A stretch of 21,872 nucleotides of DNA from Candidatus Helarchaeota archaeon (GTDB lineage Archaea; Asgardarchaeota; Lokiarchaeia; Helarchaeales; RDOG01): assembly GCA_029838215.1 (NCBI GenBank), contig JALGVI010000050.1, forward strand, positions 1-21,872. The letters run 5' to 3'. The stretch's first letter is position 1; each line of letters opens with the position of its first letter. This document shows positions 14,358 through 20,054 of this stretch, in pieces. Below the pieces are notes generated by a model, which was not told the origin of the DNA, made no database searches, and was given only the letters and a program-made list of their open reading frames with translations. A program made the translations under genes and the position numbers.

Positions 14358-15005
14358 TTATTTACTTTTCCTTCTTTTCTCTTTCTTATCCTTTCCTAAA
14401 AATGAATGAACAATATCGTAGGCTTTCTTTATTCCAAGATGATAATCCAATTCTTTAAGGTAGTTATCAAGTATTGTTGGTTTTCCCTTTAGTGCTTTTT
14501 GAACTTCATCAGCCATGTTTAGGTTCTGAAATTCGTTAATGAAGTCATCGTGTTCCTTTTTTAATCGGCTATAAATCCTTTTCTCGATGTCTTCCTTTAG
14601 TTTTTCTAAATCTTTCTTTTGAAGCTTGCTATATTCACCTTGAGTTATGTTGTCGATAATTGGCTTTATTTCGACTTCGTCCAGCCTTTTTGATCGCCCT
14701 TTTGTTGTTTTGAATGGAACTGATGCTTCCAGTATTTTTTTATTATCAAATAATTGCTTGAATAAAAATTTTCTCTTGTCTTCTAATTCCTGTAGTTTTG
14801 CATATTTCCTTGCATCATCTTCGATGTTCCAGCTAAGATTTTTTATCACGTCTCTAACGGTTCTATCAGGATGCTTGTCGGTAATATGAATTTGTCCTTC
14901 GATAATGTCGGGGAAAACGGAATTACAAATCTTGCACTTGCATTTTATTAAATACCTTTGTCTTTGAATTAATTTAATTCTCTTTTCTGCCAGGGATTTG
15001 CTCAT
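14358..15005 (-). CDS. C2H2 zinc-finger / helical protein, third gene of the topoisomerase VI operon
   Basis: CKICNSVFPDIIEGQIHITDKH = C-x2-C-x3-F-x8-H-x4-H. The ATG at 15005 overlaps the top6A TGA as ATGA; the track start at 15011 is a TTG. Confidence 0.75.
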   Translation of the reverse strand: MSKSLAEKRIKLIQRQRYLIKCKCKICNSVFPDIIEGQIHITDKHPDRTVRDVIKNLSWNIEDDARKYAKLQELEDKRKFLFKQLFDNKKILEASVPFKTTKGRSKRLDEVEIKPIIDNITQGEYSKLQKKDLEKLKEDIEKRIYSRLKKEHDDFINEFQNLNMADEVQKALKGKPTILDNYLKELDYHLGIKKAYDIVHSFLGKDKKEKRRKSK

Positions 15006-16237
15006 ATCCAATCCCCCGTTGCCAGTTTTGTCGGCAAGTAAGTTTCTGTAAGGAATTCAATTCCGTGAGAAGAAAGTGCCTGGATTTCGGCTTTCTTTTT
15101 CAGGCTTTTCATCAATTGCAGGTCTTCAACCCATCTGGGATTTTGTTTTACGAATGGTTCTTCAAGCATTTGGTCGCATCGATCTAAATCCGAATCGGAC
15201 ATGTCAAGTCGGCACTCTTTTGGGATCCTGTATGTTTCCAAATCGCGGCTGAGAACGCCAATCAGGTGCATTTTCGGTGTTGCGACAAATGGAGATTCAT
15301 ACGATAGTCTTTTACTCCCCCTCAAATAAACACTGTAAATGTAATGTCCGTATGGATCGGAATCAACCAAACAGAATACAGGCAACGTCAATTCTTTCGA
15401 AAGCTTCCGTAAAAACATTCGCGTGGCGATATCTGCCGATCCTTTTCCCGTTAGAATTATGCAGGGATAATCATTCCACCATTTTTCTTCAGAAAGTCGG
15501 ATGAGCGCTGCATCCTTTTCGACTACAAGTATGAATTCGGCATCAGACTCGACAATTTCAATGGTATCGAGCATGGGTGTAATGCTCCAGCCACCCGTCC
15601 CTAATTTTTGAAGGTCAATCACGTCTCCTGCATTTCGAATCTTTAGACGCCCTATACACATGCCCTTTGCAGAAGCAATGACGTGAGTGGAGTTCCGGAT
15701 GCACCGCAGCATTGCTGCCATATCTTCAATGCTTTTATCGCTATTTTTCTGGTCTTGATAGAGACCCGCTGCCATGTAATACATTTCACGCTTTGTTGTA
15801 TGCTTGTTCTTGACAAGAATTTCATTCGTATCCCGAAGTATTCGTATCAATCTCGTTGCATCCATTACACTCCCAAGATGGTGAAATGGTCTCTGCGTGA
15901 TTTGTTCTCCCAACAGAAGCAAGTCATGTTCTTCATTATAAATGATATTTTTTGATGAGCGGGATGGAATTTCAAAAGTTGGGGACCCGCTTGTAAGAAT
16001 CTCGCGATATATTTTGTCTGCAACATCATAAAGACGTTCTAGCGTGTCCTCACGTCTCAAATCGTCTACTTTAACAACATCGGGAGGCAATTTTGGAATT
16101 GTCGACTCTTCTTCTTCCAACTTTTTTCTTATCATATGTAATTTGAAGAATTTGTTAGAAATTTTGGATATCTTTTCTTTCTTTGAGGTTTTTGAAGTTT
16201 TTTTAACTTTTTTTGGTTTCGGAGTTCGAGCGGACAT
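15002..16237 (-). CDS. top6A: DNA topoisomerase VI subunit A (Spo11 family) with Lys-rich N-terminal tail
   Basis: IPSRSSKNIIY, TTKREMYY (catalytic Tyr motif), VEKDA and DSDPYG TOPRIM motifs, and KKAEIQAL. The start is placed at ATG 16237 because GGAGG lies at 16246-16250; the track start is 16252. Confidence 0.95.
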   Translation of the reverse strand: MSARTPKPKKVKKTSKTSKKEKISKISNKFFKLHMIRKKLEEEESTIPKLPPDVVKVDDLRREDTLERLYDVADKIYREILTSGSPTFEIPSRSSKNIIYNEEHDLLLLGEQITQRPFHHLGSVMDATRLIRILRDTNEILVKNKHTTKREMYYMAAGLYQDQKNSDKSIEDMAAMLRCIRNSTHVIASAKGMCIGRLKIRNAGDVIDLQKLGTGGWSITPMLDTIEIVESDAEFILVVEKDAALIRLSEEKWWNDYPCIILTGKGSADIATRMFLRKLSKELTLPVFCLVDSDPYGHYIYSVYLRGSKRLSYESPFVATPKMHLIGVLSRDLETYRIPKECRLDMSDSDLDRCDQMLEEPFVKQNPRWVEDLQLMKSLKKKAEIQALSSHGIEFLTETYLPTKLATGDWI

Positions 16238-16238
16238 T

Positions 16239-19200
16239 TCATTCGCCTCCATTCATGTCTAAATCGGAATCGGTATCTTCTTGTATGATGATTTCCTCCT
16301 CTTCGTCCAGCATTTCTTCTTGGGTTTCCGCTTCCCCAGGAATCGTGATGATCTCGGGTTCTTCGAATTCTTCTTCTTCGTCTTCGACTTCTTTTGCCAA
16401 TCTCCACACGGGAATTTTTATTCCTTCGACTTCCCTCTTTTCCATTAGAACCCAACCGCGTTCGACGAGATTATTCAAAATTTCGTCAATCATGTGCTTT
16501 GCTACCTTACTCGTGTTTTCAGACAGACCCAGATCTTCCATTATTTCGGACCGATTCTCCCAATGGGTCGATAATATGCTTAAAATGTCTTTTTCGACTT
16601 CTCGCTTGATCGGTTCGGTCAATTTCTCTTCGATCGTGTCTTGGCTAAGACCGTTTTCCTTGTATCGGCCAGATCTTTCGAGAATCGTGCAAAGAGATGC
16701 AGCAAATTCCTTCACGTTACGTAATAGCAAAGATGCACGCCTGGCTCGGCGGCGTTTCTTCTCACGTTTTGTGATATAATTTCTCAATCTACGTCCAACT
16801 TGCTCTATTGCAAGTTTTATCTCTTTCTTGAGGTTTTCATCATCAGCCAACGCTTGTTTCGATTGAGATTTAAACATCACGTGCACGAATGGACCCGACA
16901 CGTTGATGATCACGCGTATCTTTCCTCGAGGTAACCTATTTTCAAACGTGTCTACTTTATAATTCTTCCAATTGACTTCAGCGGCGGCTTTCCAAATTTG
17001 ACAATCGGAATTATCCCTGAGTTTAGGGGTTCTATTGACAAACCTAAAAATAACATCAGTTGCACGCGATGCGGGCTTGATGTCTCCGCCATAAGCAACG
17101 GCGACTTCGACTCCAAAAGCCAGTCCTTTTCCACTGGTCGGGTTTCGCGTTTCGGCATCACAGAAAGCAGGATTAAATTCTTTCTCTATCACTCTAATGA
17201 GGTTTTCAGCACCAACGGGAACAACCGTATCGGTTGGCGGGGCTAAATATTTTTCAGAAATGAAGGACTGATACAATGCATTCACGTGTTCTTCATCAAG
17301 TGAAGAGGGATCAAGCATTTCGAGGCTGTTTGACCCTCCCAACGAATCGTTTGTCTTATCAAGAATTGCTTCAATTTCAGCGGATGAAAGATTTGAAAAA
17401 CTTCGTTTTATTGCAGTCTGGATTTGTTTTGTATTTGCTGTTGACATTATTTCTTTTAGATTATTGAGTGAAATAGAAGCAGGACACTTTGGCAATGTCA
17501 TCATTTCATCATAAAGAACCCTTAGCTCTTTGCCCGTGAGTTCACTTAGAGACTTATCGTTCACGGATGAAAAGCCCAACGCTTTTGTAATCGTTGCGAG
17601 GAGATCATTACGTGCTTTTGACTTGATTTCTTTATACTTATTTCGAAGAATGCTTGAAATTGTCTTGCTTGCATTTTCTTTTAATGTCTTCGTGAAATCA
17701 TCAAATAATATGGTTGGAACAATTTTTTCAAGTTCGGCATGAATGATTTGAGTTTCTTTTTTCTTCAATTCTGAAACAGGAAGAGAGTTCAGACTTTTAT
17801 ATCCGAGTTTTTTGTCAGCGTTCTCAATTATTTTTTTTATCATATTCGTGTTTATTGAACAAAAATCCTTTGATAAGAAATCCGAAAAACTCTTGCCATT
17901 TTCTTTAGCAAGCGTTTTAAATCTCTTGAAACTGATCGAATATGGACAGTTAATTGATTCTCTAACAATTTCTTGTATTGTTTTAATTTCTTCCTTGGAG
18001 ATTTCACCAACTTTCTTTTTCGGCTGCCCGTATTTATTCATGATCTTTTTGACATAATCTCCTGAAACATCCTTGTAATTCTTCTTCAAGTGAGCATCAA
18101 GTTTTTCTTCAGGTGTTTCTTCCATTTTTTTTAGAACGACGTCGGCGGAATTTCTTTGAAAACAGTCCACCTTTGAAGTTATGTTACGATATAATGCCCT
18201 TAATTGCCTATCATCTAATTTATCGGGCGAGACGGAAAAGATGTTTACAGATGTTCCAAGAGCTTTGTTTGCATTTTCGATTATAGTTTTTGCTTTTTTC
18301 TTGCTCATTCGGACAAAATGTTCGGAAAAAAGCGAGACCAAATCAGCATGAGGATTATTTCTCAGGAGTTCTTGAAAATCACCAATGGAAACACTTGATG
18401 GATGGGGTTTTGCGTAATTGGGTTCTTGTGGGAACGATTGAACTTTCCGTGGATAGATCGTGGTGGTTCCGTAGGTATCGATAAATACTATGTTAACATG
18501 TCCATTCAACAGTGCTGTTTGACGAATATATTCATCGGCATAACCACGTATGTATCGTTTATTCTGGTAAAATAGTTTAACATACGTCCCGTGCTTGAAC
18601 CGAGTTCTAAATTCATCGGGTTCTAATTCATATTTCTTTTCATTTTTTTCTGTCGTGTAGAACGCCGAGATGGTTGCAGCAGGTTGACTGGCATGACGAG
18701 TGATGACGACGATCGGTTTTGCACTTGTATTCTGCGCATCTGAGAATGCAGATGATGCACCAAATCCCTGAGATCCTCTCGTTTGTTTTAAATTTTTGCT
18801 CTTTGATGAAGCCAGATATAACCCGAATTTTTCCAGATCTTCCTGTATCATCCCTATTCCGTTATCGAGAATTTCAAAGCAAAACAACCTTACATCTTCA
18901 GACTCATCGAGTGTCTCAACTTTTTCAATCTCGCGCAAGCGTATGATTAAAATGGGCTCTTTATCGATGACATCAAAAACAGGTTCTATGAAGTTGTGAA
19001 ACTGTCTTACCAAAGTCTTTTTCGAAATATCGTGAAAATCAAAATCTTCCAAGACTTTGGAAATTTCGCCTTTTTCATTTTTTTGAGGTGGATTCCACTT
19101 AAAATTAAAGCCCTTGTCAATGCGGTATGCTTTTTCCTTCCAATATGCTGTTTCTATGGCATCCAAGGAATTATCAATAAATTCTACCGCATATTGGGTA

Positions 19201-19955
19201 TGCTTGTGATATCCAAAGTCAAAACCAACAAGTTGGGTTCTTTTTCGCATGAACTCGGCGATTCCTCCTTGTCGAATAACGCCTTTTTCGGTTTTTTCGG
19301 AAACAGATTCTTTCTTGGTTGTTTTGCGTTTCACGATTCTCTTTACGGGAGTTTTTCGCCTCGAATTACGCGCTTTTTTCTTAGGTTGTTTTTCAACAGG
19401 TTTTTCTTTTTTAGTTTCTATTGGCACCGGTTTCTCCTTTGGAGTTTCAACTTCTACTGGAGCTTCTTCAATTACGGGCTCCGACTTCTCTTCCGATTCA
19501 ATTTCAATTTTTGGTTCGGGCATCTTTACTTTCTTGGTAGAGCCCTTTTCAGGTTTTAATTCAACAGAAGCCGCAGGTTGAATTTTTGTAGGAATTTTAT
19601 CTTCAATTGTAAGAGTTTTTTGAATCGGTTTTTGCGTCTTTTTCTTTTTTATTTTTGATGTCTTGACAGGTTTTGACTTTTTTTTCTTGGGTTTTTCTTT
19701 CATAGAAGGTTTTTTCGGGATTTCTTGGACGAGCTTATATCGAGTATCTTTTTTCGCCCCTTTTACCTTAATTTTATCTTGTAATTCAAGCCTTTTTAAT
19801 TGTTTTTTAAATTGGGCACCTATCTTGCGGATCTCTTCTTTCGTCTCGCCTTTCTTTATCACTTTCTTGACCAGATCACCCAGTGATAACCATTCTTTGG
19901 ATGAGCTTAATTCCTCTAAAGTCTGTAAAACGATATCTTGAGTTATTAGGGGCAA
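16239..19955 (-). CDS. top6B: DNA topoisomerase VI subunit B, greatly extended (1238 aa)
   Basis: GHKL motifs VEFIDNSLDA, DNGIG, SSK...QTRGSQGFG and HGTYV; KPHP-H2TH; transducer APPTDTV, EVAVAYGG, RFVNRTP, VNWKNY and FKSQSKQAL. TTG start with GGACGTGA 4 nt upstream. Confidence 0.95.
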   Translation of the reverse strand: MPLITQDIVLQTLEELSSSKEWLSLGDLVKKVIKKGETKEEIRKIGAQFKKQLKRLELQDKIKVKGAKKDTRYKLVQEIPKKPSMKEKPKKKKSKPVKTSKIKKKKTQKPIQKTLTIEDKIPTKIQPAASVELKPEKGSTKKVKMPEPKIEIESEEKSEPVIEEAPVEVETPKEKPVPIETKKEKPVEKQPKKKARNSRRKTPVKRIVKRKTTKKESVSEKTEKGVIRQGGIAEFMRKRTQLVGFDFGYHKHTQYAVEFIDNSLDAIETAYWKEKAYRIDKGFNFKWNPPQKNEKGEISKVLEDFDFHDISKKTLVRQFHNFIEPVFDVIDKEPILIIRLREIEKVETLDESEDVRLFCFEILDNGIGMIQEDLEKFGLYLASSKSKNLKQTRGSQGFGASSAFSDAQNTSAKPIVVITRHASQPAATISAFYTTEKNEKKYELEPDEFRTRFKHGTYVKLFYQNKRYIRGYADEYIRQTALLNGHVNIVFIDTYGTTTIYPRKVQSFPQEPNYAKPHPSSVSIGDFQELLRNNPHADLVSLFSEHFVRMSKKKAKTIIENANKALGTSVNIFSVSPDKLDDRQLRALYRNITSKVDCFQRNSADVVLKKMEETPEEKLDAHLKKNYKDVSGDYVKKIMNKYGQPKKKVGEISKEEIKTIQEIVRESINCPYSISFKRFKTLAKENGKSFSDFLSKDFCSINTNMIKKIIENADKKLGYKSLNSLPVSELKKKETQIIHAELEKIVPTILFDDFTKTLKENASKTISSILRNKYKEIKSKARNDLLATITKALGFSSVNDKSLSELTGKELRVLYDEMMTLPKCPASISLNNLKEIMSTANTKQIQTAIKRSFSNLSSAEIEAILDKTNDSLGGSNSLEMLDPSSLDEEHVNALYQSFISEKYLAPPTDTVVPVGAENLIRVIEKEFNPAFCDAETRNPTSGKGLAFGVEVAVAYGGDIKPASRATDVIFRFVNRTPKLRDNSDCQIWKAAAEVNWKNYKVDTFENRLPRGKIRVIINVSGPFVHVMFKSQSKQALADDENLKKEIKLAIEQVGRRLRNYITKREKKRRRARRASLLLRNVKEFAASLCTILERSGRYKENGLSQDTIEEKLTEPIKREVEKDILSILSTHWENRSEIMEDLGLSENTSKVAKHMIDEILNNLVERGWVLMEKREVEGIKIPVWRLAKEVEDEEEEFEEPEIITIPGEAETQEEMLDEEEEIIIQEDTDSDLDMNGGE
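17241..18401 (-). repeat. Five tandem H2TH-like protein repeats (72-80 aa) inside Top6B, aa 519-905
   Basis: Units start PSSVSIGDF / FQRNSADVV / PYSISFKRF / PTILFDDF / PASISLNNL. They share the F/Y-x2-[MVIL]-S/N/K...K-I-I/M core and end with [LI]-x3-[EQH]-[LIV]-x2-[LI]. Confidence 0.8.
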
Positions 19956-20054
19956 AAAATCACGTCCAAACTCTTCCGGTGAAGATTCAATTCAAACATG
20001 CTATAAACTCACGAAAACTTGTAAATACGTGATCAAAATTGAAGATTTTTTATT

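Follow-up and report, generated by a model that had tools for sequence, protein, structure and literature searches.

A predicted winged helix and lysine-rich linker at the N-terminus of topoisomerase VI subunit B in one archaeal family

The top6B locus

The window described here, a stretch of 21,872 nucleotides (contig JALGVI010000050.1) from a Candidatus Helarchaeota archaeon, carries the genes for both subunits of topoisomerase VI (topo VI). The gene for subunit B, Top6B, encodes an N-terminal extension ahead of the canonical core, and this extension is the subject of the present analysis. It consists of a basic domain, predicted to be a winged helix (WH), and a long low-complexity linker (Table 1). 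All elements by which a topoisomerase VI subunit B is recognized are present, namely a GHKL ATPase domain (PF13589, E = 4e-7), a transducer domain (PF09239, E = 1e-40) and a partner gene for Top6A. In addition, the 1238-residue open reading frame (ORF) scores 370 bits against NCBIfam NF003218, which has a cut-off of 274. The core motif GIAEFMRKRTQLVGFD is conserved across the Top6Bs of the class; in the families f4 and f5 it lies 12–56 residues downstream of the preceding in-frame stop.

Two orthologues were available for comparison with the source genome (G000). P0003 is a Top6B of 1271 residues from a Logan assembly (locus L016), and the other is encoded in G001, a genome of the sister genus (L018/L050). 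The gene order coaBC-top6B-top6A is common to the window and L016.

Table 1. Features of the top6B-top6A region. Coordinates are those of the window, residue numbers those of Top6B.
Feature	Residues	Coordinates	Strand	Remarks
Giant Top6B gene	1–1238	16239-19955	minus	1238 aa, TTG start
Predicted N-terminal WH	1–76	19728-19955	minus	opens with LPLITQD
Lys/Pro/Glu-rich low-complexity linker	77–225	19281-19727	minus	net +25; presumed disordered
Island QKTLTIEDKI	112–121	19593-19622	minus	inside the N-terminal linker
Second basic block	182–215	19311-19412	minus	includes KKKAR and KTPVK; just ahead of the GHKL N-strap
Start of canonical Top6B core	231–246 (motif)	19221-19280	minus	motif GIAEFMRKRTQLVGFD
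C-terminal WH-like domain	~1118–1188	16392-16604	minus	positional equivalent of the C-terminal WH of the class
Acidic C-terminal tail	1189–1238	16242-16391	minus	net -25; without Lys or Arg
Top6A gene		15002-16252		directly downstream of Top6B; Toprim E = 1.7e-57

Coding status and translation start

In three diverged orthologues, those of the window, of L016 (P0003) and of G001 (L018/L050), no stop codon interrupts the frame along the extension. Over the 76 WH codons, identity between the window and L016 amounts to 38, 50 and 26 at codon positions 1, 2 and 3, respectively, and 17 of the 31 identical WH residues use different codons. The two alternative frames contain 6–11 stops. Because of the pattern of codon-position identity, the synonymous differences and the stops in the other frames, the extension is regarded as protein-coding and under constraint.

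In-frame start-type codons are TTG1, GTG32, ATG85, ATG145, GTG177, GTG208 and ATG236. The domain is kept whole by TTG1 only, the next candidates being GTG32 and ATG85. Moreover, the conserved first Leu of the WH family motif falls on TTG1. Initiation at GTG208 could give rise to a short isoform.

An upstream open reading frame (uORF; ATG...TAA) of 18 codons is located out of frame at 19946-19999 on the minus strand. It overlaps the Top6B TTG, and its stop lies 7–9 nt past the start codon. A uORF of the same length is found at the same position in L016 (3573-3626, plus strand), and the two peptides, MFELNLHRKSLDVIFCP and MWDMNFSRNGMDVNSWQ, show several conservative matches. In G001 the equivalent uORF ATG was not seen upstream. 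Translation from the weak TTG might be coupled to this uORF.

Fold of the N-terminal domain

Residues 1–95 were modelled with AlphaFold2 from a two-sequence alignment, in which P0003 was the only other row. The model has a mean predicted local distance difference test (pLDDT) score of 68.9 and contains helices at residues 6–17, 25–32 and 39–58, followed by a β-hairpin formed by residues 62–65 and 72–75. From residue 80 to the end of the model at residue 95 the pLDDT falls below 50. In this model residues 1–76 are a winged helix of three helices with a β-hairpin as the wing. The original prediction, made from the DNA letters alone, had given the same order of helices and wing, which the model reproduces, and had placed the start of helix 3 about 10 residues too far downstream. 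It had also described a Lys/Pro-rich tail behind the winged helix and the fusion of both to the N-terminus of Top6B, which agrees with the predicted fold, the composition and the open frame in the orthologues.

Foldseek retrieved no PDB structure at E ≤ 1e-3. The top rows were Fur, the C-terminal domain of LACTB2, H1x (rank 3, E = 0.055), Scc1-C, MecI and CzrA. Neighbours by ESM features and by Atlas shape were prokaryotic WH families (e.g. BlaI/MecI, DpnI_C, BLACT_WH, HTH_24 and ScpA); since all ESM Atlas feature scores were below 0.9, these are used as leads only. Taken together, the structure searches with the model point to a common superfamily, the winged helices, and to no agreed family within it. 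The domain is strongly basic, with a net charge of +8 over 76 residues.

Relation to the C-terminal winged helix of the class

The Top6Bs of families f4 and f5 end with a linker rich in Lys, Pro, Ser and Thr, followed by a domain of about 66 residues. These C-terminal linkers contain 12–27% Lys (22–27% in seven out of eight) and 3–21% Pro. In the Lys-rich C-terminal linkers of several f4 enzymes (L053, L054, L059 and L061), one or two helix-extension-helix units resembling Rho-N/SAP, e.g. LTIKELRKIGDQNNISIPSRIRKAEIIEII, are situated ahead of the terminal WH.

Nine of the C-terminal domains were aligned (A5), as were the three N-terminal WHs of G000, P0003 and G001 (A2). The A5 consensus starts with KLPxITTDxIL and ends with GKKxWKLK, while the N-terminal WH of the window starts with LPLITQDIVL and ends with DTRYKL; the LPxITxD start motif is thus common to both. 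Comparison of A2 with A5 by hhalign resulted in a probability of 93.4%, an E-value of 2.6e-7 and a score of 39.9 over 69 aligned columns (of 70–85). As controls, the reversed alignment scored 11.9, and 200 column shuffles scored 10.4 ± 2.0 and never above 16.6. Pairwise BLASTP against single C-terminal domains (E = 0.015 and 5e-4) aligned the LP(L/I)IT(Q/T)D start. The basic residues of helix 3 and the wing are common to the N-terminal WH and the A5 family.

The C-terminal WH-like domain of the Top6B encoded in the window was compared with A5 by means of an order-level alignment. It reached a probability of 70%, an E-value of 4e-5 and a score of 29.1 (shuffles 10.4 ± 2.5), and it gave weak Pfam WH matches, including MCM_C (E = 0.009). 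No relation was detectable between this domain and the N-terminal WH (score 14.5). The N-terminal copy is thus the better-preserved member of the family. By profile comparison, then, family f1, to which the three orthologues belong, carries two putative copies of the domain, one at each end.

The N-terminal WH therefore resembles the terminal WH of the class in its assignment to the same domain family by profile-profile comparison, in the LPxITxD start and in an aromatic residue in the last strand. Both are parts of Top6B, next to a linker rich in Lys and Pro. In contrast to A5, the domain of the window, like that of P0003 and G001, is situated at the extreme N-terminus ahead of the GHKL ATP gate, so that the order of domain and linker is reversed. 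It also has an insertion of 9–10 residues (IKKG.TKEEI) between helices 2 and 3, and the protein keeps the second, diverged C-terminal WH. Consequently, the module is regarded as a lineage-specific Top6B appendage that arose at the N-terminus in a single family by duplication or relocation.

Composition of the linker and the C-terminal tail

The linker (residues 77–225) contains 43 Lys, 5 Arg, 18 Pro, 22 Glu and 1 Asp. The count of 43 Lys and the motifs KKKAR and KTPVK, both named in the original prediction, were confirmed by recounting. Over its 149 residues this corresponds to 29% Lys, 12% Pro, 15% Glu and 3% Ala, with a single TPVK site. An acidic block (residues 152–181, net -7) is located between basic blocks at residues 92–106 and 182–211; in the charge profile the second of these reaches net +6 and +8 per 15 residues. 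The linkers of the orthologues are similar in length and composition (163 residues, net +42 in P0003; 164 residues, net +26 in G001). KPKA and AKPK repeats in the tails of P0003 and G001 give these a more H1-like look.

Within the poorly conserved, fast-evolving low-complexity linker, the island QKTLTIEDKI of the window aligns with QKTLVIEDII of P0003. It resembles the QKLPIITTDKI-type lead-in to the WH of the other families. The island may be a remnant of a second copy of the domain, or a short linear motif.

The acidic C-terminal tail is present in G000 and P0003 and is missing from G001 and from the enzymes of families f3, f4 and f5 that were examined. Its charge of -25 exactly mirrors the +25 of the N-terminal linker, a hint of self-interaction in the source genus. 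As a general explanation, charge-matched autoinhibition by pairing of the N-terminal linker with the C-terminal tail was set aside, since neither G001 nor any f4 or f5 enzyme has this tail.

Comparison with linker histones

The original prediction had called the extension H1-like and had asked for a preference for the H15 domain (PF00538) among winged helices. As an architecture the description stands: linker histones H1/H5 (PF00538 followed by a Lys/Ala/Pro tail) share with the extension the order of WH and tail as well as, according to the model, the three-helix WH fold. As a statement of kinship with H15 it is not supported, since the match to PF00538 is sub-threshold and was not reproduced in the orthologues. 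All Pfam matches of residues 1–80 of G000 were below threshold, with MCM4_WHD at E = 0.016 and PF00538 at E = 0.032 (14.9 bits against a gathering cut-off of 22.4). For neither P0003 nor G001 did PF00538 appear at E ≤ 10; the best match of P0003 was MCM6_C (6.6e-4), and G001 gave weak matches to BLACT_WH, HTH_45, HTH_24 and HTH_12. The nine A5 members matched neither PF00538 nor any Pfam WH family at E ≤ 1. When 400 genomes of the phylum were searched with PF00538, the source genome had no listing at E ≤ 0.01, and unrelated ORFs in other genomes outscored it, reaching up to 24 bits.

Two ORFs of G076, G076:C1:2400881-2401051 (plus strand; L062) and G076:C1:2243184-2243342 (minus strand), reach 24 bits (E = 1e-4 per genome) and thereby just exceed the PF00538 cut-off. 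With about 379 and 412 residues they are of a size that points to larger proteins, for instance Orc1/Cdc6, of which the matched segment would be the WH.

Sequence and profile searches of the PDB with residues 1–82, A2 and A5 gave nothing significant or informative, and no H1 chain was found with the A2 and A5 profiles at E ≤ 10. Among the structural neighbours, H15 structures did not stand out from other WH families. Neither Pfam nor the PDB nor the structure searches thus revealed the preference for H15. The extension further differs from H1/H5 in its tail, in which Glu makes up 15% and Ala 3%, and which contains an acidic block. H1/H5 is a free chromatin protein, whereas the module described here is covalently part of Top6B in three orthologues, and its nearest demonstrable relatives are Top6B appendages.

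Distribution in related archaea

Domains of the A5 type occur in 142 of 154 genomes of families f4–f7, nearly always at the end of Top6B frames of 1000–1300 residues. With such open frames the Top6Bs of the class are giant, about twice the usual size; the enlargement is therefore not peculiar to the window. The long N-terminal extension is limited to family f1 (G000, P0003 and G001). Two genomes of the same order have shorter charged extensions of 80–100 residues at the same place, without the domain (G006, basic, net +14; G003, net -6), and no N-terminal extension was found in the f4 and f5 genomes sampled.

A phmmer search with residues 1–82 against 1.84 billion representatives matched only P0003 and P0004, a CHAT-TPR protein. 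The latter was rejected as a repeat artefact, having been matched via repeated TLGDIARILVSKGEVDEAL TPR units. In 60 relatives the same query gave nothing below E = 0.006. A word-indexed search with the A2 profile detected no further fusions, and the stand-alone copies that the original prediction had suggested looking for did not emerge from it either. A search of genome contigs for related loci returned three unrelated archaeal Top6Bs.

The A5 family is not restricted to Top6B. In G266 (L078, 140-1417, plus strand) a WH of this family is the N-terminal part of a protein of 425 residues, in which an acidic linker and TPRs follow. Another WH of this type lies in an open frame of about 91 residues in G247 (L075, 380-652, plus strand), which may be a stand-alone copy. 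With members in about 150 genomes and without a Pfam model, the WH family appears to be undescribed; in the literature we found no paper on this family or on an N-terminal form of it.

Proposed function

We consider it reasonably probable that the basic WH and the basic linker constitute an N-terminal Top6B appendage derived from the WH family of the class, which serves as a non-specific DNA tether and resembles H1 by convergence. Regarding the role itself, a non-specific DNA tether is the most likely one by comparison with actinobacterial TopA and its lysine repeats, and the convergent H1-like tether that the original prediction had offered as one of two options remains the best functional guess. 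According to this proposal, a copy of the C-terminal WH of the class would have been placed at the N-terminus in family f1, a diverged WH staying at the C-terminus. The basic WH of about 76 residues would be joined to the N-strap of the GHKL ATPase by a presumably flexible linker of about 150 residues rich in Lys, Pro and Glu. The WH and the linker would both bind duplex DNA without sequence specificity and keep the A2B2 enzyme on DNA or chromatin beside the ATP gate, the entry of the transported duplex. With such a tether, DNA would be more concentrated near the gate and bound with higher affinity; the capture of crossings would be aided, dissociation reduced and processivity increased.

The N-terminal strap of Top6B closes the GHKL dimer and thus lies at the ATP gate, through which the transported duplex is admitted (PMC9665070, PMC5922973). 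Because the N-terminus of Top6B carries this strap, the appendage is placed at the ATP gate. The best functional analogy is actinobacterial topoisomerase I, exemplified by Streptomyces TopA, which likewise has a Lys-rich low-complexity tail on a topoisomerase (PMC5714199, PMC7398561). In Streptomyces TopA the C-terminal lysine repeats stabilize the complex of enzyme and DNA and confer processivity (PMC5714199). However, TopA is a type IA enzyme with its tail at the C-terminus and without a WH, and it is unrelated in sequence. Lineage-specific C-terminal extensions of Top6B, some of them in Asgard archaea, have been noted in general terms and proposed to specialize topo VI (PMC9348778). The Ig-like C-terminal domain of Methanosarcina mazei Top6B, along with other extensions, is likewise a lineage-specific accessory domain at one end of the protein (PMC9348778, citing Corbett et al. 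2007). Extensions of this type were proposed to specialize or localize topo VI and were linked to the presence of gyrase (PMC9348778). The appendage described here differs in being a WH rather than Ig-like and in occupying the opposite end of the protein, and GyrA and GyrB were not found in G000 and G001. Accessory appendages of the DNA-binding type are already known from topoisomerases, and the variant with an N-terminal WH and a Lys-rich linker appears, as judged from the sequences, to be new.

Several points weigh against the proposed DNA tether. The AlphaFold2 model is of moderate confidence (pLDDT 68.9, two-sequence alignment), and that of the N-terminal domain of G001 was poor (pLDDT 45.7) and was not used in the fold searches. 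An HMMER search of G000, G001, G003 and G006 with the A5 profile alone missed the N-terminal WH of G000 and G001; the homology with A5 is based on the comparison of profiles and on the common motif. The TTG start is a predicted one. The N-terminal tail is a polyampholyte, unlike the C-terminal tail of H1, which is a pure polycation. Finally, the top structural matches are the C-terminal winged-helix domains (WHDs) of kleisins, which bind the heads of structural maintenance of chromosomes (SMC) proteins rather than DNA, and the TPR protein of G266 that is headed by the same WH family fits protein docking equally well. As the main alternative, the WH may be a protein-docking module like the kleisin WHDs, which are known to bind SMC ATPase heads. 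It would then bring topo VI together with a partner such as an SMC-type ATPase, or pack against the enzyme itself, and the Lys-rich stretch would mainly be a flexible spacer. The match to the kleisin WHDs (Scc1-C, ScpA-C) is a structural one, however, with 8–9% identity and no sequence-level signal, and it leads many DNA-binding WH families by just 1.3–1.5 Z units. No SMC-type partner or genomic context was seen at the Top6B of the window. The strongly basic character of the WH, whose basic residues in helix 3 and wing recur in A5, also speaks against docking, and the acidic tail is found neither in G001 nor in any of the WH-bearing f4 and f5 enzymes. We therefore regard a docking module as rather unlikely.

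Less likely still is a start of Top6B downstream of the extension, for instance at GTG208, which would leave the extension outside the working enzyme, its upstream part being untranslated or part of a minor isoform. TTG is a weak start codon and the orthologues likewise have no ATG, and GTG208 is in frame 23 codons ahead of the conserved N-strap motif, reminiscent of the N-termini in f4 and f5. Nevertheless, we give this explanation little credence. About 230–260 codons are open in a genome of 38% GC and in three diverged lineages, and codon identity that is near random at the third and high at the second position, together with the differing codons of identical residues, indicates selection on the protein; the TTG falls on the Leu of the WH motif and is the sole start that spares the whole domain. 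The layout of WH and Lys tail could also reflect genuine, very distant homology with H15, which would make the extension a prokaryotic relative of H1. This is highly improbable, since PF00538 stayed below its cut-off and did not recur in P0003 and G001 (E ≤ 10) or the nine C-terminal homologues (E ≤ 1), unrelated ORFs elsewhere scored higher in the genome search, which gave nothing for the source genome at E ≤ 0.01, the A2 and A5 profiles retrieved no H1 chain from the PDB at E ≤ 10 and H15 was structurally undistinguished. The nearest demonstrated relative is instead the Top6B-specific WH family. Hardly any weight is given, likewise, to the bolder view that the Top6B WH with its Lys/Pro tail, which is widespread in the class and has in f1 the order found in H1, is a prokaryotic sister or source of the eukaryotic H15 module, of which the sub-threshold matches to PF00538 and H1x would be the last trace.

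The Spo11 machinery descends from topo VI, whose known DNA-sensing elements (KGRR loop, H2TH and stalk) are all found within the core. The lineage studied here would add tethered modules of the DNA-binding type at the ends of Top6B, and one family has a copy at the ATP gate. If the N-terminal copy is a DNA tether, it would offer a natural experiment, in a type IIB enzyme, on the effect that accessory domains have on the capture of crossings and on processivity. An H1-like layout of WH and lysine tail can presumably arise in an archaeal enzyme family without descent from H15, and claims of prokaryotic linker-histone origins call for caution.

Type II topoisomerases in the order

In the f1 genomes G000 and G001, both about 94% complete, neither GyrA (PF00521) nor GyrB (PF00204) was found. 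Topo VI is probably the only type II topoisomerase in genomes without gyrase. A query with the GHKL domain of Top6B returned nothing in two f2 genomes (93% complete). Judging from this small sample of incomplete genomes, type II topoisomerases may be partitioned by lineage within one order. GyrA is present in G002, G003, G004, G028 and G052.

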